A stretch of 64,000 nt of DNA from positions 89,185-153,184 of the forward strand of contig JBAXSC010000002.1 of the NCBI GenBank assembly GCA_037130925.1, in the 5' to 3' direction. The number at the start of each line of letters is the position of its first letter. Position 1 is the first letter of the stretch. The notes beneath the pieces were generated by a model. That model saw only the letters and a list, made by a program, of their open reading frames with translations. It was not told where the DNA came from and searched no databases. The DNA comes from Candidatus Nomurabacteria bacterium. GTDB lineage: Bacteria; Patescibacteriota; Minisyncoccia; Phycocordibacterales; UBA5272. Both the position numbers and the translations under genes were made by a program. Below are positions 786 through 60,522 of the stretch, in pieces.

Positions 786-1523
786 TTATTTAATATTATC
801 TCTGAAATAAGATGATCTATAACTTAGAACGTAATCAGGTGGCAAAACATTCTTATTGCCTTGCTGGAAAAACCAAAAACCTCCAAAATAATCTCTAATA
901 AGAGCACGTAAATAAAATCCATCAACTTGAAAACTTTCTCTTTTTTGACATGGAGTATTTTGATAATCCATAAACGACATTAGAGTATTATTATCATTCG
1001 GTCTAGTTATTCCATCGATACATTTTCCACCAAGATTTTCTGTTAATTCCAGATGAAATATTTCTTGATTTGTAATCAAATCTGTTATTGTATCTTCTTT
1101 ATCATCTGTCTTATTATCAGCATTCTCGCCAACAATATCACTCTCATATAATAGAAAACATCTTTTTTTATTATAGTCATAAACATAACTATAATCATTA
1201 TCGGAACTATGTTTATTTGAAAAAATATTCCAAGCATTCAAACAATCATTACCGCTAACATCTCCTTGTGATAAACCATCATAAAGTTTTTTGTTATAGT
1301 CTTCAACTGACGTTATTGAATTATCATTGCCCGATAATGCAATTTCATTTTGTTTATTTAATGTAGTTGTGGATATATTATTAGACTGATTAATGGAGTC
1401 TGAATTATAAGTAGTAGTATTACTATTTCCTTTCATTATTAAAAAAGTTCCAAAGATAATAGCCAAAACAAGAACCGCTAAAATTTGTAAATTAGTATTT
1501 TTTTTAATATCTTTTAATTTCAT
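786..1523 (-). CDS. hypothetical membrane-anchored/secreted protein
   Basis: 245-aa ORF with an N-terminal hydrophobic helix (LQILAVLVLAIIFGTFLIM) followed by an Asn/Ser-rich, Cys-containing domain. No family recognised. Confidence 0.6.
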   Translation of the reverse strand: MKLKDIKKNTNLQILAVLVLAIIFGTFLIMKGNSNTTTYNSDSINQSNNISTTTLNKQNEIALSGNDNSITSVEDYNKKLYDGLSQGDVSGNDCLNAWNIFSNKHSSDNDYSYVYDYNKKRCFLLYESDIVGENADNKTDDKEDTITDLITNQEIFHLELTENLGGKCIDGITRPNDNNTLMSFMDYQNTPCQKRESFQVDGFYLRALIRDYFGGFWFFQQGNKNVLPPDYVLSYRSSYFRDNIK

Positions 1524-1550
1524 AAATTTATTTTATTTATATAAAAAACA

Positions 1551-1685
1551 AAATAGGCACCCCATAAGGTGCTCACAAACCGATGGAATATCCACCGATA
1601 TGCTTCCCTATAGGATGCCTATTCAGTGCACATCGGCGGAAATACCTTAAAAAGATTATTCCTGTAATATTCGGTTTGTGAGCAT
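1551..1685. ncRNA. candidate structured element R, copy 1 (long bipartite hairpin plus loop-to-flank pairing); RNA versus DNA hairpin undecided
   Basis: Helix A 1570-1583/1671-1684 is 14 bp perfect. Helix B 1592-1603/1628-1639 is 12 bp with two A.C mismatches on the plus strand, which would be G.U on the minus strand. AATAGGCA 1552-1559 pairs with TGCCTATT 1616-1623 in the apical loop. A small hairpin lies at 1557-1572. Locally GC-rich, with the same architecture as 35392-35530. Confidence 0.45.
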
Positions 1686-1749
1686 GTTTATAATACCATA
1701 AAACTATAAAAAGTGATAAAATAACCTTATTATTACGATTAAAATTAAT

Positions 1750-3321: not shown

Positions 3322-4638
3322 ATGAAAATAGAAAATACAAATTCTCAGTTTGAGCCAATAACTCCAGAAAGCCTCTCGGAGATATTGGATCTTACTATTA
3401 AAAATGATAATGAAAACAAAATTGTAACATTTTTATGTCAGCTTTCAGCATATACAGAAGATGCTCAATTCAATGTTTCTTTTAATAGCCCATCAAGTAC
3501 AGGAAAATCATATATCGCTTTAGAGGTATCACGACTCTTCCCAAATGAGGATGTTATCAAACTCGGTAATTGTTCAAAAACAGCCTTTTTCCACGAACAA
3601 GGAAGCTATAACAAAGAGACAAATGAAATCACTGTAGACCTATCTAGAAAGATACTAATATTCACAGATAGTCCTCATACAGGATTACTAGAAGGATTAC
3701 GTTCATTTCTTTCTCACGATGAAAAGATAATGTACTCCAAGATTACGGATAAGAATCAGAAAGGAGGAAATCGTACCAAAACAATCGCATTAAAGGGTTA
3801 TCCTTCTGTCATCTTCTGTACAGCAGGATTAAGAATGGATGCTCAAGAACAGACTAGATTCATTTTATTATCTCCTGAAGTAAATCAAGAAAAAATCCAT
3901 GCTGGTATATCAAACACTATTCGTAAAGAATCTGATAATGAAAAGTATAAAGAATGGCTTGATAATGACCAAAAGCGAAAAATGTTAAAGCTTCGTATAC
4001 AAGCAATCAGACAGGAACATATTGACGATATCAAGATATCAAATCAAGATAAAATCTTTAAGCGATTTTTTCAACGAGACAGAAAACTACAACCTCGTCA
4101 TCAACGTGATATTAAGAGATTACTTTCACTTGTAAAATCTTTCGCTTTACTAAATCTTTGGTGGAGAGAAAGAGATGGTTCAACTATAACAGCAAACGAT
4201 GAAGACATAGAACAAGCATTTAAACTTTGGGAGAAAATCTCAATAAGTCAAGAATTAAATTTACCTCCCTTCATTTATGATATCTATACACAGATAATTA
4301 TTCCAGCTTACAATGAGAAAAATGAATTTAAATCTCAAGTATTAAATGAAACACTTAAGAACGGTATTACTCGCCAAGAAATTCTTGATAAACATTTTAA
4401 AATCTTTGGACGTACATTGGATAATCAACAATTAAGACAACAAATTATTCCTGTACTAGAAACATCTGGATTGATTTATCAAGAACAAGACCAAACTGAT
4501 AAACGAAAGATATTAATATTCCCCTCTATGTTTTTTACTACGGAATCAGTGGAAAACAATAGTGATGATGAGTGTGGGGTAAATGAAAATTCTGAAGAAA
4601 ATTATAATGATAATAATTTTCAAAGACAGAACTCCTAA
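3322..4638 (+). CDS. P-loop NTPase, putative replication/helicase-type protein of the element
   Basis: Start moved to the internal ATG (MKIENTNSQ...) because the track ORF start at 3196 overlaps the upstream gene. Walker A-like SPSSTGKSY, Walker B-like ILIFTD, and a C-terminal acidic tail. Confidence 0.55.
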   Translation: MKIENTNSQFEPITPESLSEILDLTIKNDNENKIVTFLCQLSAYTEDAQFNVSFNSPSSTGKSYIALEVSRLFPNEDVIKLGNCSKTAFFHEQGSYNKETNEITVDLSRKILIFTDSPHTGLLEGLRSFLSHDEKIMYSKITDKNQKGGNRTKTIALKGYPSVIFCTAGLRMDAQEQTRFILLSPEVNQEKIHAGISNTIRKESDNEKYKEWLDNDQKRKMLKLRIQAIRQEHIDDIKISNQDKIFKRFFQRDRKLQPRHQRDIKRLLSLVKSFALLNLWWRERDGSTITANDEDIEQAFKLWEKISISQELNLPPFIYDIYTQIIIPAYNEKNEFKSQVLNETLKNGITRQEILDKHFKIFGRTLDNQQLRQQIIPVLETSGLIYQEQDQTDKRKILIFPSMFFTTESVENNSDDECGVNENSEENYNDNNFQRQNS

Positions 4639-5384: not shown

Positions 5385-7004
5385 ATGAATGAAAAAAAAT
5401 TAAAGTATTTTCTCTATGCAAGAAAATCAAGTGAGTCAGAAGATAGGCAAGTACAATCTATTGAAGATCAAATTAAAGAATTAAAAGTAAAAGCATTGAT
5501 GTTAGGAATAACTATAAAAGAAATATTACAAGAAGAAAAATCTGCTAAGAAACCAGATAATCGTCCAATATTTTCGGATATGTTAAAACGAATAAAACAA
5601 GGAGAAGCGGATGGAATATTATGTTGGTCTTTAAATAGACTATCAAGAAATCCTGTAGACAGTGGAGCATTGAGTTGGATGTTGCAACAAAATATTCTTA
5701 AATGTATTCAAACCATGGATAGACCATATCTACCAGATGATAATGTTCTCCTGTTCAATGTAGAAACTGGAATGGCTAATCAATTTATAATTGATTTAAA
5801 AAAAGTTTGTATGCGTGGAATGGAAGGAAAAGCTGATAGAGGTTGGTTACCATCTAGAGCCCCTATTGGATATTTAAACGAGAAAGATAAAATTGAAGGA
5901 ACAAATCTTATAGTGGAAGATCCTGAAAGATTTAATCTTGTAAGAAAAATGTGGGATCTAATGCTCACAGGAAATTATGTAGTTCCTCAAATATATAAGA
6001 TTGTAAATGAAGAATGGGGATTTAGAACTAAAAGAACAAAAAGAGGCGGTGATGTGCCGATTCCCCTTTCTGTACTCTATATAATGTTTACAAATTTATT
6101 CTATGCTGGAAGATTTATGTGGAACGGAAAAGAATATCAGGGAAAACATAAAGCAATGGTAACTTTAGAAGAATTTGATAGAGTGCAAGAAATCTTGGAG
6201 AAGAAAGGAAAACCCAGATCTAAAACTCATGAATTTTCTTATACCTGTTTGATAAGATGTGAAGTTTGTGGATCTTTCTATACTGCTATAGAAAAAACTA
6301 AGTTTGTAAAAAAGGAAGATAAAAATAAAACATACACATATTATGGATGCATAAAAAATAAAGAAATAAAGTGTAATCAAGAAACTTTAAAATTAGAAAA
6401 TTTAGAAGATCAGATTAAATTAGAATTTGAAAAATATACCATACACCCAAAATTTTTAGAATGGGCTAAAGATATTCTAAATAAGAATAACGATAAAGAA
6501 ATAGAAGACAGAACTAAAATCTACGAGACCCAACATAAAGACTTGGTAAAAACCCAAACTGAACTAGATAACTTGGTTAGAATGAGATATAAAGGGCAAG
6601 TAGAAGATGAATTCTACACACAGGAAAGTAACCACTTAAAAGGCAAAATAACCCGCTTACAAGAGAATTTGAGACATACAGAGACACGAGCTGAGCAATG
6701 GATAGAACTGACAGAAAAGACCTTTAAATTCGCACTTTATGCTAGAAAATGGTTTGACGAAGGAGATATACATACTAGAAAAGAGATATTCTCAGCTCTT
6801 GGTCAGAACTTTACTATAAAGGATAAAAAACTCTATATAAATCAAAACGAATGGCTAATTCCAATAGAAAAAGCCTATCCTGAATTAAAAGCAAGATTTG
6901 AGTCGTTAGAACTAAATAAAAGCCAAGATATACAAAGCTATTATGTTGAATTAGACAAGCTAATTCTCGATTGGTGTGCCTATCCGGATTTGAACCGGAA
7001 CTGA
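5385..7004 (+). CDS. large serine recombinase (integrase)
   Basis: N-terminal resolvase domain (YARKSSESEDRQVQSIEDQ, LNRLSRNPVDSG), recombinase domain, Zn-ribbon (CEVCGS...YYGC) and C-terminal coiled-coil. The 3' end overlaps tRNA-His. Confidence 0.9.
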   Translation: MNEKKLKYFLYARKSSESEDRQVQSIEDQIKELKVKALMLGITIKEILQEEKSAKKPDNRPIFSDMLKRIKQGEADGILCWSLNRLSRNPVDSGALSWMLQQNILKCIQTMDRPYLPDDNVLLFNVETGMANQFIIDLKKVCMRGMEGKADRGWLPSRAPIGYLNEKDKIEGTNLIVEDPERFNLVRKMWDLMLTGNYVVPQIYKIVNEEWGFRTKRTKRGGDVPIPLSVLYIMFTNLFYAGRFMWNGKEYQGKHKAMVTLEEFDRVQEILEKKGKPRSKTHEFSYTCLIRCEVCGSFYTAIEKTKFVKKEDKNKTYTYYGCIKNKEIKCNQETLKLENLEDQIKLEFEKYTIHPKFLEWAKDILNKNNDKEIEDRTKIYETQHKDLVKTQTELDNLVRMRYKGQVEDEFYTQESNHLKGKITRLQENLRHTETRAEQWIELTEKTFKFALYARKWFDEGDIHTRKEIFSALGQNFTIKDKKLYINQNEWLIPIEKAYPELKARFESLELNKSQDIQSYYVELDKLILDWCAYPDLNRN

Positions 7005-7047
7005 GGGTTCCACAAACCCTAGTGCTAACCATTACACTATAGGCACC
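6972..7047 (-). tRNA. tRNA-His (anticodon GTG) with encoded G-1, A73 and CCA
   Basis: Reverse complement folds as G-1, GTGCCTA, D arm GTGT/GCAC, anticodon arm AGGGT-TTGTGGA-ACCCT, T arm TCCGG-TTCAAAT-CCGGA, then TAGGCAC-A-CCA. Confidence 0.9.
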
Positions 7048-34353: not shown

Positions 34354-34860
34354 TTAGTTATTTAAATAAGACTTTACAAGATTATTAAATTCTATTGGGG
34401 TTTTACAATCTTTTTCCTCCACTTTGCAAGATGTATATTCTGGATATTTGCCATCATACGTTATTTGTCCAATTTCCTTATAAGAAGTAGCATTATATAG
34501 ATATGCATACTTACTTCCATTTACAATATTATCAAATCTATCTGACACATCAGCTGATTCTAATTCAAAATATATATAACAATTATTACTTTTTATATCA
34601 AAATTAGTTACTATATTTGTTTCTTTATCTGTATTGTCCTCTCCTTTTTGTGACTCATTATATTTAATAAATTTAGTTCCTTGTTCAGAACATTTCTGTT
34701 GTAGTTCAAATATTTCTTTTTTGCTTAGTTTATCTTGTGAATATATCAACAAAAATAAAAGGAACGAAATTATTAACCCTAAAACTATATAACTAATAAT
34801 ATTCCAATTTTTGTATTTAAAAATACGATGTACCAATTTCATAGTTTTTAATATAACCAA
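34354..34860 (-). CDS. membrane-anchored hypothetical protein
   Basis: 168-aa ORF with one TM helix. It overlaps the upstream gene by 13 nt, so the two are probably an operon. Confidence 0.5.
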   Translation of the reverse strand: MVILKTMKLVHRIFKYKNWNIISYIVLGLIISFLLFLLIYSQDKLSKKEIFELQQKCSEQGTKFIKYNESQKGEDNTDKETNIVTNFDIKSNNCYIYFELESADVSDRFDNIVNGSKYAYLYNATSYKEIGQITYDGKYPEYTSCKVEEKDCKTPIEFNNLVKSYLNN

Positions 34861-35336
34861 TTACTTACACCGCCATGACGAGAACATGACCCTCTATGAT
34901 TTTGACTAAAGCTATATGTCCCATCTTTACATTTAGCGGTAGCTCCAGCAGGAATACCGTTTGAAGAATATGAAGGGCTTTTTATAGAGTTGCCACTTAC
35001 ATTTGTATAAGTATTTGTATTAGAAAGTGTTGTAGTCCATTCTGGATGAGAAGAGATTATTGTTTCAGCACTAGCTCTTGTTGTTGCTCCAAAATATCCA
35101 TTTGCAGGTAATATTCCTTGTTGCTGTTGAAATTGTATTAAAGCATTTTGAGTAAGAGCGCCAAAAGTTGAAGTTATTTGGTAATTAAATAGTCCTTCAT
35201 CTTTAAGAAATTGCTGTAATGAAGCTACCTCTGTTGTTGTCATTCCATAACTTAAATTGTGATTAAAAGTTGAGGCAAAACTTTGTGAAGAAAATAAAAA
35301 CAATATTGAAGCGAAAAATATAAAAAGTCTTTTCAT
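34848..35336 (-). CDS. secreted protein with peptidoglycan-binding domain and DUF3761-like C-terminus
   Basis: Signal peptide; PG_binding_1-like VASLQQFLKDEGLF...ALIQFQQQQGILPANGYFG; C-terminal KCKDGTYSFSQNHRGSCSRHGGVSNW. Confidence 0.65.
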   Translation of the reverse strand: MKRLFIFFASILFLFSSQSFASTFNHNLSYGMTTTEVASLQQFLKDEGLFNYQITSTFGALTQNALIQFQQQQGILPANGYFGATTRASAETIISSHPEWTTTLSNTNTYTNVSGNSIKSPSYSSNGIPAGATAKCKDGTYSFSQNHRGSCSRHGGVSNWLY

Positions 35337-35391
35337 AATTTGTATAAATTAAATTATTATTAAGACTGAAGTATCTATAATATAAAAACCC

Positions 35392-35530
35392 AAAATAGGC
35401 ACTCCAGTGAGTGCAGACAAATCAATAACTTTCGTTATCAATGTGTTTCTCACACGGAATGCCTATTTTAGGCACATTGATAACGAAAAGCTTTTGATCG
35501 CTCTTTGATTTTTGTATTGATTTGTCTGCA
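35392..35530. ncRNA. candidate structured element R, copy 2
   Basis: Helix A 35412-35427/35515-35530 is 16 bp perfect. Helix B 35430-35445/35473-35488 is 16 bp perfect. AAAATAGGCA 35392-35401 pairs with TGCCTATTTT 35460-35469 in the apical loop. A hairpin GCACTC-CAGT-GAGTGC lies at 35399-35414. Confidence 0.5.
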
Positions 35531-35575
35531 AATATAGAATATCACAAAAATAAAGAAAGTGGTAAAATATACTAT

Positions 35576-36328
35576 ATGAAAAAAGCTACAACGAAGAATG
35601 TAAAATCTATTATTAAAGACTTTGGAGATAACAAAGAAGATTATAAAGATCTACTTAAAAAGATAATAAACTCAACAAATAGACTTGGCGGAATAGAAAA
35701 AACAAATGATTTAATATATAAAAAAGACGATATTATACATAACACTATACTAAAAAATATAGACTACATTTTCAATAAAAATAATTTAAAGTTTTATATT
35801 TTGAAAAAAGATATAAAAAATGAAATAAATAGAAAAATAGAAGAAATTGGTATGGTTAATTACTATGAAAAAATTAGCGATTACAATTTTGAAGAAAAAG
35901 TATATTTTAATAAGGATAATTTAAAAGATGTAATTTATGCTATAGAAAATATAGATGAAATATTTACTAACAAAAAAAGAATTTATAATCCTATAAAGAT
36001 AAAAAGACTTGGAAGGACAATAGAAGAAAACGGATTTTATGGAAAAAATGGTCTATTAGAAAAAATAACACCTATGCAATATAAAATTATAATATTATTA
36101 CATTGTAATTTTGAAACAAAATTAAAAGGAGAAACTATTGGAAGACAATTAGAAACTTCATCAAAAAGTATTGAGACAAGAATTTTAGAAATAAACAAGT
36201 CTTTTGTTAAGGCGTGTTTCCCAAAGATAGATAAAAAACTATACTTTTTAGAAAAGAACTTAATATTAGGGACGAATGCAAAAGGATATAAACTTAATGA
36301 AAAATACACAATGCCACCAGATAAATAA
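35576..36328 (+). CDS. DNA-binding protein with C-terminal OmpR/PhoB-type winged helix
   Basis: Start moved to the ATG at 35576, because the track ORF uses a TTG inside the structured element. C-terminal ITPMQYKIIILLH...IETRILEINKSF...AKGYKL fits the winged-helix pattern. Confidence 0.55.
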   Translation: MKKATTKNVKSIIKDFGDNKEDYKDLLKKIINSTNRLGGIEKTNDLIYKKDDIIHNTILKNIDYIFNKNNLKFYILKKDIKNEINRKIEEIGMVNYYEKISDYNFEEKVYFNKDNLKDVIYAIENIDEIFTNKKRIYNPIKIKRLGRTIEENGFYGKNGLLEKITPMQYKIIILLHCNFETKLKGETIGRQLETSSKSIETRILEINKSFVKACFPKIDKKLYFLEKNLILGTNAKGYKLNEKYTMPPDK

Positions 36329-37490: not shown

Positions 37491-39176
37491 ATGGCTACAT
37501 ATAATCAAAAAAATTATAAAACTCTAAAATTAACAAACTACTGCAGAAAATCTTCAGAAGGAGAAGATAGGCAGGTATTATCTCTCAATAGTCAAAAAGA
37601 TGAAGGAGAAAATATTAGATCATATTTTGAATTACCAAAATTTATAAGTTCTTATTCAGAAGCAAAATCAGCAAAACTTCCATATAAAAGAAACGAGTTT
37701 TCTCAAATGATAAAAGATATAAAATCTGGGAAAATAGATAGCATTGTTTGCTGGAAATTAGACCGTCTAGCGAGAAATATGGTTGAAGGTGGAGAAATTA
37801 TAGACCTATTAAGTTCAGGTGTCTTAAAAGCTATTTTTACAAAAGATAAGGTATGGCTTCCAACTGATAATGTTATCTTAATGGCAGTAGAATTTAGTCA
37901 AGGAACACAATACAGTATAGACCTATCTGAAAATGTAAAAAGAGGTCAACGAAATAAAGCTAAAGAAGGAACACCTACAGGTCTCGCCTCTCTAGGTTTT
38001 TTAAATAGCAAACAAGGAGACAAAGGTACTCGATGGTGGTATGTAAATGAAGAGAGTTTTAATAAAGTCAAAAAGTTATTTGAAGCATTTTTAGGAGGAA
38101 ACTATTCTGTCCGTAAATTACATAAATATGCAATTGAAGAATTGCATTTAACTACCCCTTTAAGAAAAAAACTTGGAGGTAAATCTATATCTGTTGCAAA
38201 TATTTATCATATACTCAAAAATCCTGTGTATGCTGGATTCTTTTATGTACAAGGTAAAAGATATGAGTTAACTAAAGAACTTCCAAGAATGATCACGGAA
38301 AAAGAATATGAAAAAATACAACAAATGATAAGTAATAATAGAAAACCAAAAAATTCTAAACATAAAGCAGATTATGCAGGATTTCTATTTGATGAAAAAA
38401 ATAAGATTATGTCTCAAGATATAAAATTTCAAATTGTCTGCGATTGTAAATTTAAATATGCTTTTAGAAACAAAAACAATTGTCCTAATTGCGGAAAAAA
38501 TGTAACTGATCTTGATAATCCAAAACATTTTATTCAGTCTTATTATTACAATAATAGAAAAAAGAAAGCCAGATTAAAGTATAAGTCTATTAAACAAGAA
38601 ACAATAGATAATTATCTATTGAATTTTATAAATGATAATTTGGATCTTCCTTTAGAAGTTTTAGAATGGTCTAAAAAATATATAAAAGAACTTAAAGATA
38701 AAGAAGTACAAGAAAACTTAGATAAAGTAAAAGATAAAGAAAAAAGACAAATTGAATATAATAAAAAGAAATTAAGAATAAGAGACATGTATAGAGATCT
38801 TCTTATTAATGAAGATGAATTTAAACAAGACAATGAAAGATTAGATACTGAATATAAAGATCTCTATCAAAACATAAAATCAATTGACTGGATGAAAGAA
38901 TTAAATAGTATCATGGATTTAACTTTTACTATAAAAGATAATATAGAACATGGAGACTACGAGACAAAAAGAATAATGTTAACAAGATTAAGTTCGAACT
39001 TAATTTGGAATGATGAAATACTCAATATTATCAACACTAATGAGATAGAGGAGCTTATAAAAGGATTAAAGATCGCAAAACCTATTATTTCAGGGTTCGG
39101 CAATCAAAAAGCCCTTGTAGAACAAGAGCTTAATGATAGAAACAGTGAATTATGTATTACTTTGCGGAAGTGGTGA
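37491..39176 (+). CDS. large serine recombinase (integrase)
   Basis: Resolvase domain (CRKSSEGEDRQVLSLNSQ, LDRLARNMVEGG), recombinase domain, Zn-ribbon (CDCKF...CPNCG) and coiled-coil. The last 12 nt overlap tRNA-Ser. Confidence 0.9.
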   Translation: MATYNQKNYKTLKLTNYCRKSSEGEDRQVLSLNSQKDEGENIRSYFELPKFISSYSEAKSAKLPYKRNEFSQMIKDIKSGKIDSIVCWKLDRLARNMVEGGEIIDLLSSGVLKAIFTKDKVWLPTDNVILMAVEFSQGTQYSIDLSENVKRGQRNKAKEGTPTGLASLGFLNSKQGDKGTRWWYVNEESFNKVKKLFEAFLGGNYSVRKLHKYAIEELHLTTPLRKKLGGKSISVANIYHILKNPVYAGFFYVQGKRYELTKELPRMITEKEYEKIQQMISNNRKPKNSKHKADYAGFLFDEKNKIMSQDIKFQIVCDCKFKYAFRNKNNCPNCGKNVTDLDNPKHFIQSYYYNNRKKKARLKYKSIKQETIDNYLLNFINDNLDLPLEVLEWSKKYIKELKDKEVQENLDKVKDKEKRQIEYNKKKLRIRDMYRDLLINEDEFKQDNERLDTEYKDLYQNIKSIDWMKELNSIMDLTFTIKDNIEHGDYETKRIMLTRLSSNLIWNDEILNIINTNEIEELIKGLKIAKPIISGFGNQKALVEQELNDRNSELCITLRKW

Positions 39177-39249
39177 GATTCGAACTCACGATGAGTTTCC
39201 CCATGCCGGTTTTCAAGACCGGTGCCTTCAACCACTCGGCCACACTTCC
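39165..39249 (-). tRNA. tRNA-Ser (anticodon TGA)
   Basis: Reverse complement is GGAAGTG-TG-GCC...anticodon arm CCGGT-CTTGAAA-ACCGG, a long variable arm, T arm GTGAG-TTCGAAT-CTCAC, then CACTTCC-G. No CCA. Confidence 0.9.
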
Positions 39250-60296: not shown

Positions 60297-60404
60297 AAAA
60301 AACTCCTAGCCAGTTCCGGTATACCCCGTGAGGCATACCCACATCCGTTTCCAGATGTGACCGTCCAAAGTAGACTCTGACTAGGAGATCTTTACTTTGG
60401 ACGG
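60297..60404 (-). ncRNA. candidate structured RNA / leader (GC-rich multi-helix element ending in a U-run)
   Basis: Minus strand: outer helix 60379-60387/60303-60311 (9 bp with one G.U). Hairpins 60340-60345/60354-60359 and 60318-60325/60332-60339 (one G.U). 60393-60404 pairs with 60361-60372. U6 run at 60297-60302. Both mismatches are G.U only on the minus strand. Confidence 0.5.
60361..60380 (+). repeat. 20-nt repeat, copy 1 (CCGTCCAAAGTAGACTCTGA)
   Basis: 19/20 identical to 61315-61334. The core CCGTCCAAA also occurs inverted at 60265-60273 and 60396-60404. Confidence 0.85.
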
Positions 60405-60522
60405 ATATTTGAAACCATGCTTTATTGCTAAAGTTTAGGTTATTTGTAATAAATAATAGCATAATTCAAACTATTATTCTATAATTATTATATCGCAATA
60501 ATTAAAAAAGTCAGATCTATAT

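Follow-up and report, generated by a model that had tools for sequence, protein, structure and literature searches.

The 64,000-nucleotide (nt) stretch of DNA analysed here, referred to throughout as the window, comes from a Candidatus Nomurabacteria bacterium (assembly GCA_037130925.1, contig JBAXSC010000002.1, positions 89,185 to 153,184) and has a G+C content of 22–34%. It carries two copies of an element that we call R, each near a large serine recombinase (LSR) gene; the two recombinase genes (5385-7004 and 37491-39176) are 29% identical. A covariance model of R matches the minus strand at 1540-1690 (copy 1, 133.2 bits) and at 35382-35536 (copy 2, 128.5 bits). Copy 2 lies between a minus-strand gene and a divergent plus-strand gene (35576-36328). 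A first-pass annotation of the window, made from the letters alone, had described R as two nested helices with conserved loops. Compensatory changes in further copies and several strand signals, set out below, identify R as a functional structured RNA read from the minus strand. The parts of copy 2 and its immediate surroundings are as follows.

35385-35530, minus strand: R RNA, predicted transcript of ~145 nt from the UGC opening P1 to the end of the U tract (ends predicted from the -10 box and the terminator)
35536-35544, minus strand: extended -10 box TGATATTCT, 6 nt upstream of the GC of P1 (TAnnnT at the same spacing in 15 of 15 copies)
35515-35529, minus strand: P1 5′ strand, the right arm of helix A (inverted repeat, folds, alignment)
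35412-35426, minus strand: P1 3′ strand, the left arm of helix A, its last two bases shared with the terminator stem (inverted repeat, folds, alignment)
35488-35503, minus strand: P1a, a variable hairpin at the three-way junction (single-sequence folds)
35473-35487, minus strand: P2 5′ strand, the right arm of helix B (inverted repeat, folds, alignment)
35430-35445, minus strand: P2 3′ strand, the left arm of helix B (inverted repeat, folds, alignment)
35456-35469, minus strand: segment X, apical AAAAUAGGCAUUCC, the GGAATGCCTATT loop motif of the first-pass annotation read on the other strand (X:T pairing)
35399-35414, minus strand: predicted intrinsic terminator hairpin GCACUC-ACUG-GAGUGC, the small hairpin of the first-pass annotation (terminator scan, family pairs)
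35382-35398, minus strand: terminator tail and U tract CUAUUUUGGGUUUUUAU, annotated at first as the flank TATAAAAA-n-AAAATAGG (terminator scan)
35392-35405, minus strand: segment T, which pairs with X (X:T pairing)
35560-35568, plus strand: predicted extended -10 box TGGTAAAAT of the divergent gene (ATG at 35576), overlapping the R -35 region (promoter scan, consensus match only)
34848-35336, minus strand: downstream gene for a PG_binding_1 and DUF3761 protein, its ATG 45 nt past the U tract; candidate regulated gene

In this architecture P1 closes the structure, and the three-way junction above it bears the short hairpin P1a. P2 forms a long arm that has an asymmetric internal loop with conserved G and A residues and is topped by the apical hairpin P3 (CAUAGG-CAU-CCUAUG); the intrinsic terminator follows directly after P1. 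Compared with dinucleotide shuffles, the 154-nt stretch folds with z = -6.2 on the plus strand and -7.6 on the minus strand, and none of 200 shuffles folds as well. Helices A and B had been drawn as 16-bp pairs, and both are indeed exact, perfect and nested inverted repeats (35412-35427/35515-35530 and 35430-35445/35473-35488).

Copy 1 shares the layout and the conserved blocks of copy 2: TATAAAAA..AAAATAGGCAC, GGA(A)TGCCTATT and GCACAT are all present, as had been reported. Its features are these.

1543-1684, minus strand: R RNA of copy 1, predicted transcript (covariance model, minus-strand terminator, X:T paired 10 of 10)
1557-1572, minus strand: terminator hairpin
1540-1556, minus strand: terminator tail
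1613-1623, minus strand: segment X
1552-1563, minus strand: segment T
1690-1698, minus strand: extended -10 box TGGTATTAT, with -35 TTATCA 18 nt upstream
786-1523, minus strand: downstream gene of 245 aa without a significant Pfam family, its ATG 16 nt past the U tract

The helices of the two copies had been called unrelated in sequence yet changed together on both arms. The second half of that statement stands and, for helix A, the first does not: this helix reads GCTCACAAACCGAT in one copy and GCAGACAAATCAAT in the other, 10 of 14 positions are the same, and the other four have changed on both arms. Helix A is thus homologous with four compensatory changes, which is stronger evidence of selection for pairing than unrelated sequences would be. 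The small hairpin also co-varies, at one pair (C-G versus T-A).

Two further copies, upstream of related recombinases at loci L015 and L018 (loci outside the window carry L numbers), came from a search with a covariance model of the window pair. A pattern drawn from these four copies led to others in metagenome contigs, and four (L099, L102, L106 and L107) lie on contigs retrieved through close homologues of the recombinase. The family has at least 15 distinct copies, which we analysed: the two in the window and 13 in metagenome-assembled genomes (MAGs) or metagenomes of the Candidate Phyla Radiation (CPR; Patescibacteria). Their median pairwise identity is 57%, and they represent perhaps 8–10 independent lineages. 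The recombinase at 37491-39176 is 100% identical to a Candidatus Nomurabacteria MAG protein, its relatives are nearly all from Parcubacteria/Patescibacteria, and the R family belongs to mobile elements of CPR/Patescibacteria bacteria.

Our main alignment of the 15 copies (A9) was fitted to the covariance model and is hence biased toward the structure; an independent MAFFT/RNAalifold run recovered the same helices. In A9, pairing extends to 95.8% of cells, with double changes at 28 of 37 pairs. None of 500 shuffles reaches any of five pairing measures, and sliding the partners by 1–3 columns lowers pairing to 36–46%. The pairs of P1 are 99% paired, with double changes at 12 of 14; for P2 the figures are 96% and 10 of 12. 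In L099 the two arms of P1 have in effect exchanged sequences (GCUUGUGAA.../...UUCACAAGC) with pairing kept. P1a is the weakest part of the structural model: a hairpin appears there in 12 of 13 single-sequence folds (it is absent from the L081 fold), the hairpin sequences are unrelated, and just two pairs can be aligned, 80% paired. As the compensatory changes in 15 copies confirm at the level of sequence, R is a functional structured RNA of a predicted ~145 nt. The proposal of a functional structure, made from two loci, is borne out by 13 more copies elsewhere in which covariation is present.

The first-pass annotation implied that R is read on the plus strand. Four lines of evidence agree on the minus strand instead. 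First, in all 15 copies a -10 hexamer of the form TAnnnT precedes the GC at the start of P1 by exactly 6 nt, and in 13 of them it is extended by TGn. Second, reverse-complemented, the small hairpin and the flank motif TATAAAAA-n-AAAATAGGCAC read as a G+C-rich hairpin and then CUAUUUUGUUUUU, that is, as an intrinsic terminator. Such a hairpin and U tract are present in every copy of R, and a terminator scan of both window copies returned a terminator on the minus strand only (expectation in shuffles 0.1 for copy 2). Third, non-Watson–Crick cells of the main helices, read in the minus-strand sense, comprise 28 G·U and 9 A·C, numbers that swap on the other strand; mismatches in the core of X:T, in the RNA sense, are 3 G·U and 0 A·C. 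Fourth, all 13 folded copies are more stable in the minus-strand sense, by 1 to 28 kcal/mol. Because promoter, terminator, mismatch asymmetry and fold energies agree, we read R as an RNA encoded on the minus strand, with a predicted promoter and terminator of its own.

That R might instead be a riboswitch-like 5′ leader of the plus-strand HTH-type gene, with TATAAAAA..AAAATAGGCAC as its 5′ flank, is scarcely credible on this evidence. The right-hand gene does lie on the plus strand, and the plus strand folds well too, as any strong inverted repeat must. However, that gene has its own predicted extended -10 at 35560-35568, between R and its ATG, so that its mRNA would exclude R and R would not be its leader; the other copies show no conserved plus-strand promoter to the left of R; the 28 G·U pairs become A·C mismatches and the fold loses stability in every folded copy; and the HTH-type gene is not beside R in L099 and L102.

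The divergent-promoter arrangement is the same in copy 1 (TGATAAAAT). In both window copies the R promoter and that of the divergent HTH-type gene stand back to back (35536-35568 and 1690-1722), each -10 box within the -35 region of the other, an arrangement that looks like a phage-type divergent switch as far as promoter motifs can tell. The plus-strand gene of copy 2 would be nearly leaderless, its -10 box ending 7 nt before the ATG. Across the window, a Shine–Dalgarno (SD)-like motif precedes 1 of 54 open reading frames of at least 150 aa, and a TAnnnT hexamer lies 4–9 nt before the ATG in 25 of 54, compared with 20% at random positions, which suggests that SD-less or leaderless expression may be widespread in this organism.

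The annotation of the plus-strand genes as OmpR-type winged HTH genes fits copy 1, where the product of 1750-2760 matches Trans_reg_C (PF00486; 27.8 bits against a cut-off of 26.2, E = 2.7e-6), and does not carry over to copy 2, where the product of 35576-36328 matches no Pfam family at E ≤ 0.01 (best HTH_11, E = 0.18). The two plus-strand proteins show no similarity to each other by BLASTP. The ~250-aa plus-strand proteins diverge too far for a useful alignment, and for copy 2 only weak matches speak for a winged helix. None of ten element proteins matched PHROGs.

The conserved motifs of R had been described as single-stranded or tertiary ones. Not all are single-stranded, since AATAGGCA of the flank and TGCCTATT of the apical loop are complementary to each other: the supposed 5′ flank is the 3′ terminator tail, and the apical motif, complementary to it, is a candidate strand for an antiterminator or pseudoknot. 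Segment X, the apical AUAGGCAUCC, spans the 5′ strand of P3, the loop and the first bases of the P3 3′ strand. It is complementary over 10 bp to segment T (GGGUGCCUAU), which consists of the terminator's entire 3′ strand and the beginning of the U tract. X:T pairing and the terminator are mutually exclusive, as the pairing uses the whole 3′ strand of the hairpin.

X:T is paired at 10 of 10 positions in 12 of the 15 copies and at 9 of 10 in two, or 96.7% overall. Double changes occur at three pairs: G-C to A-U in L018, G-C to C-G in L106, and C-G to U-A in window copy 2, L082 and L085. The observed values were reached by 0–3 of 500 shuffles, and slid partners pair at 31–53%. In L018 the changed base of X is compensated in both of its partners, P3 and the tail. 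X is also sequestered locally in every copy, mostly by the downstream CCUAU(G); the exceptions are window copy 2 and L106, where a mimic of T lying upstream (GCCUA and GUGCG, respectively) does so. The X:T duplex has a mean energy of -18.1 kcal/mol (-21.6 kcal/mol in copy 2), against -3.7 for P3 plus -8.2 for the terminator, so that the two states are comparable, given the penalty of a pseudoknot. Because it crosses P1 and P2, X:T would be a pseudoknot, from the tip of the long arm to the tail at the base of P1; such a tip-to-tail pseudoknot would give a rationale for the conserved helix lengths.

Two copies have a further hairpin just past the R terminator, on the minus strand, that repeats the X and T motifs: UAGGCAUCC...GAUGCCUAUU at ~2395-2430 in L107 and GGGCAU...AUGCCC at ~85-125 in L087. 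The start codon of the gene that follows (ATGCCTATT...), which encodes a methylase in L107, is buried in this hairpin.

Downstream of R, a gene on the same strand begins 8–50 nt past the U tract in each of the 14 copies for which sequence beyond R is available (the remaining copy, L106, sits at a contig start). Our preferred reading, held tentatively and with a little less than even confidence, is that R acts in cis as a terminator/antiterminator leader, a transcription attenuator, for this gene. In its favour, the X:T pairing is conserved, and the next gene stays near the U tract even in L102, where the orientation of R to the recombinase is reversed. In the OFF state, X would be locked in P3, the terminator would form and a short RNA of ~145 nt would be released. 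In the ON state, X would pair over 10 bp with T, the terminator would be lost and RNA polymerase would read into the downstream gene. The ON pairing would join the tip of the P2–P3 arm to the tail leaving the base of P1, and the conserved helix lengths would bring tip and tail together. The balance might be set by folding kinetics, by a small molecule or by a protein from either the element or its host.

Several points weigh against an attenuator. The promoter, the RNA ends and the switch are all predictions. X pairs with the terminator strand that is transcribed last, and would therefore have to out-compete the adjacent 5′ strand kinetically. The covariation of X:T rests on about three independent substitution events; in L107 a double change preserves P3, but the tail lacks the matching change and X:T has one U·U; and in L106 X:T is only 7 of 10 paired in the fixed alignment. 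With SD-less or leaderless genes, the downstream gene may own a promoter, which would make R a free-standing small RNA (sRNA). Finally, the downstream genes are functionally heterogeneous, unlike classic riboswitch regulons. They are mutually unrelated and include genes for PG_binding_1 proteins (window copy 2 and L102), small membrane proteins, DNA methylases (L082, L089 and L107), a PLD+SNF2 helicase (L083) and, in L086, a large secreted subtilisin-like protein (judged by its sequence, not by a Pfam scan).

Restriction–modification or other defence-type genes recur beside R in L081, L082, L083, L089, L102 and L107; they comprise type I HsdM/HsdS with Fic, N6 and N4 methylases, a type III methylase N-terminal domain and the PLD+SNF2 helicase.

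The same heterogeneity of neighbours speaks for the main rival explanation, in which R is a free-standing, trans-acting sRNA of the mobile element (base-pairing, protein-sequestering or immunity-type) and the terminator merely ends the RNA. X:T would then be a tertiary or 3′-end-protecting pseudoknot, or incidental. We regard this as a serious possibility, albeit on balance an improbable one. Its own promoter at a fixed distance and its own terminator, both predicted, would suit such an RNA, as would a promoter placed back to back with that of a divergent HTH gene, as in phage-type switches. Genes here often look leaderless, so those downstream may have promoters of their own.

Homology between loci also tends to be limited to the transcribed segment, as for a self-contained gene, and often ends exactly at its ends. 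L102 3512-3664 and L091 1623-1775 are 95% identical over 138 nt between unrelated flanks, and L087 121-269 is 92% identical to L083 10380-10528, with unrelated flanks on both sides. From such comparisons, it is as if the R gene had been swapped between loci as a discrete cassette.

Other results do not favour action in trans. RNAduplex on the translation-start regions of seven elements gave no consistent site, no significant z-scores and hence no conserved target. Within 12 kb at 10 loci, the complement of X, the most conserved segment, was found only inside R, apart from two isolated chance 8-mers (L018 and L015). Nor would a free-standing gene need another gene within 8–50 nt of its U tract, as seen in every copy with sequence there.

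A narrower form of the attenuator reading is that R is an orphan riboswitch class of CPR elements, in which the three-way junction senses a host-state signal (a metabolite or second messenger) and the pseudoknot turns on a variable cargo slot. We consider this doubtful. In the arrangement of L081 and L102, such a riboswitch could possibly also control the regulator–recombinase module downstream: in L102 (and by homology L081), R points toward that module instead of away from it. In L099, R lies inside a run of co-oriented genes.

Evidence for a cargo slot comes from the comparison of L102 with L081. The sequence before R and R itself are 85% identical as far as the U tract. L102 (~3660-4431) then has an inserted PG_binding_1 gene, placed precisely between the R terminator and the small membrane-protein gene that comes directly after R in L081. 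Judged from this alignment, the slot after R behaves as a cargo-insertion point. A less likely variant is that the 150-bp cassette of promoter, RNA and terminator also marks an integron-like insertion hotspot for cargo genes.

An LSR gene is visible at 10 of the 15 R loci, 1.6–4 kb from R. A tRNA gene, on the opposite strand, lies at or beside the 3′ end of the LSR gene in all four loci scanned past the recombinase (the two in the window, L015 and L082). There the stop-codon end of the LSR gene overlaps or abuts the tRNA gene at its 3′ end, with an overlap in both window copies.

5385-7004 / 6972-7046: LSR gene and tRNA-His, window copy 1
37491-39176 / 39164-39249: LSR gene and tRNA-Ser, window copy 2
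L015 ~8680: LSR/tRNA junction, tRNA-Asn
L082 ~11528: LSR/tRNA junction, tRNA-Asp

These junctions suggest that the carriers may be small LSR elements that integrate into the 3′ ends of tRNA genes. At the other end of the element, we found no displaced tRNA fragment or direct repeat. The conserved context claimed for R is retained in part: both window copies lie in an LSR element, and the neighbours are only loosely conserved, with a downstream gene that differs by locus and, in L102, an opposite orientation of R with respect to the recombinase.

A location in recombinase-bearing elements, the perfect nested inverted repeats, the variable slot with its precise insertion in L102 relative to L081, and CTAT/ATAG motifs that recur through the element would all fit a role of R as DNA, whether as an LSR attachment (att) or integron-like site, as an inverted-repeat operator for the HTH protein, or as a single-stranded DNA origin of replication or transfer. 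We nevertheless consider such a role very unlikely. The excess of G·U over A·C is unexpected for a duplex protein-binding site, and promoter and U-tract terminator bracket the structure precisely in 15 of 15 copies. R lies at some distance from the recombinase gene, in either orientation; some loci have no recombinase within 5–7 kb; and R shows no significant similarity to the cognate tRNA genes for His, Ser, Asn and Asp. A single-stranded origin tolerates G·T pairs but leaves the external -10 box unexplained. The ATAGGCAC common to R and tRNA-His is a coincidence, because copy 2 adjoins tRNA-Ser.

Among the 80 best recombinase loci of the genome contigs, only L015 and L018 carry R, which is thus not general to this recombinase clade. 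A strict three-block DNA pattern from the window copies had no match in viral contigs or genome contigs, a pattern that was over-strict and a search set in which the source genome falls outside the GTDB representatives. Among the matches listed for two more patterns run on IMG/VR viral contigs there were only chance ones, which the covariance model rejected, and blastn found no match to R in GenBank phages or PLSDB plasmids. L084, L088 and L090 were chance pattern matches rather than copies of R, and the motif pair of L012 lacks the R architecture. L092 (4429-4514) retains only part of an R-like 3′ end (CUUGUCAGCACUCUGUGGAGUGCCUAUUUUG) and no other portion of the structure; this is possibly a decayed copy.

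A related LSR element without R, L100 (= L101), has another strongly folding region (z = -6.6) between divergent genes at 4440-4600 on the minus strand, ending in a hairpin and U run. By its position and fold, this region may be an analogous RNA of another family.

At gathering thresholds, Rfam 15 returned only tRNAs and LOOT for the whole window and no family for R. The LOOT RNA (RF03000) is full-length, at 60318-60441 on the minus strand (76.2 bits against a gathering score of 46.4). At E ≤ 10, both copies of R gave sub-threshold chance matches only, the top one with 21.4 bits against a gathering score of 99. We found no description of the R RNA or its carrier elements in full-text literature. 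We class R as a new structured, terminator-linked regulatory RNA of mobile elements, outside every described Rfam family.

Among known systems, R is nearest in logic to pseudoknot-type transcriptional riboswitch platforms, such as those for ZTP and fluoride, and to phage or satellite RNAs that tie pairing to termination. In the riboswitch platforms, as in R, a structured domain close to the promoter precedes an intrinsic terminator, one strand of which is also the partner in a competing long-range or pseudoknot pairing whose formation would give read-through; junction and loop nucleotides are conserved while stems covary. R differs in that the competing strand is the 3′ rather than the 5′ strand of the terminator, that heterogeneous mobile-element cargo rather than a metabolic regulon lies downstream, and that no Rfam family matches it even at the relaxed threshold.

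The CI RNA of P4 and the c4 RNA of P1/P7 are likewise small structured RNAs beside the regulatory region of an integrative element, adjacent or divergent to a repressor-type gene, with a conserved segment that is complementary to sites in the same transcription unit and tied to termination. They are processed from longer leaders and act on separate targets upstream of replication or antirepressor genes. Unlike theirs, the only conserved complement in R is its own terminator; its hosts are CPR bacteria, its integrase is a serine recombinase, and no such Rfam family was found in the window.

The put RNA of HK022 and the short lambda pR′–tR′ transcript share with R a strong promoter followed by a short, structured, terminated transcript, with downstream genes that need read-through. 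The put RNA modifies RNA polymerase and consists of two simple stem-loops, and the lambda 6S transcript requires protein Q and has no conserved fold. R, in contrast, combines a three-way junction with an internal alternative pairing that involves its own terminator.

The Pas sRNAs of pathogenic E. coli are one example of base-pairing sRNAs encoded by prophages and other mobile genetic elements (bioRxiv 10.64898/2026.05.13.724894). Like R, these are described as small RNAs of mobile elements that have spread among related elements as discrete units, and they act in trans on mRNAs through known seed regions, whereas no trans target was found for R in the elements searched.

The potential value of R is that a compact, strongly covarying RNA brings together a predicted promoter, a terminator and a built-in alternative pairing, and so offers a concrete and cheaply testable regulatory device. 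Annotation of the family can draw on the covariance model R2. CPR/Patescibacteria, which live as uncultured episymbionts, have tiny genomes, and to our knowledge almost nothing is known of their gene regulation or mobile elements. R is confined to their integrative elements, where it sits at the border of a variable cargo slot occupied by methylases, a helicase, and secreted or membrane proteins. Should R prove to act in trans as an sRNA, it would stand among the rare element-encoded sRNA families reported from CPR bacteria. If it were a ligand-responsive switch, it would represent a new riboswitch class and offer a handle on how these elements sense their host, and were the orphan-riboswitch reading true, the expression of cargo or the excision of the element would be coupled to host physiology.

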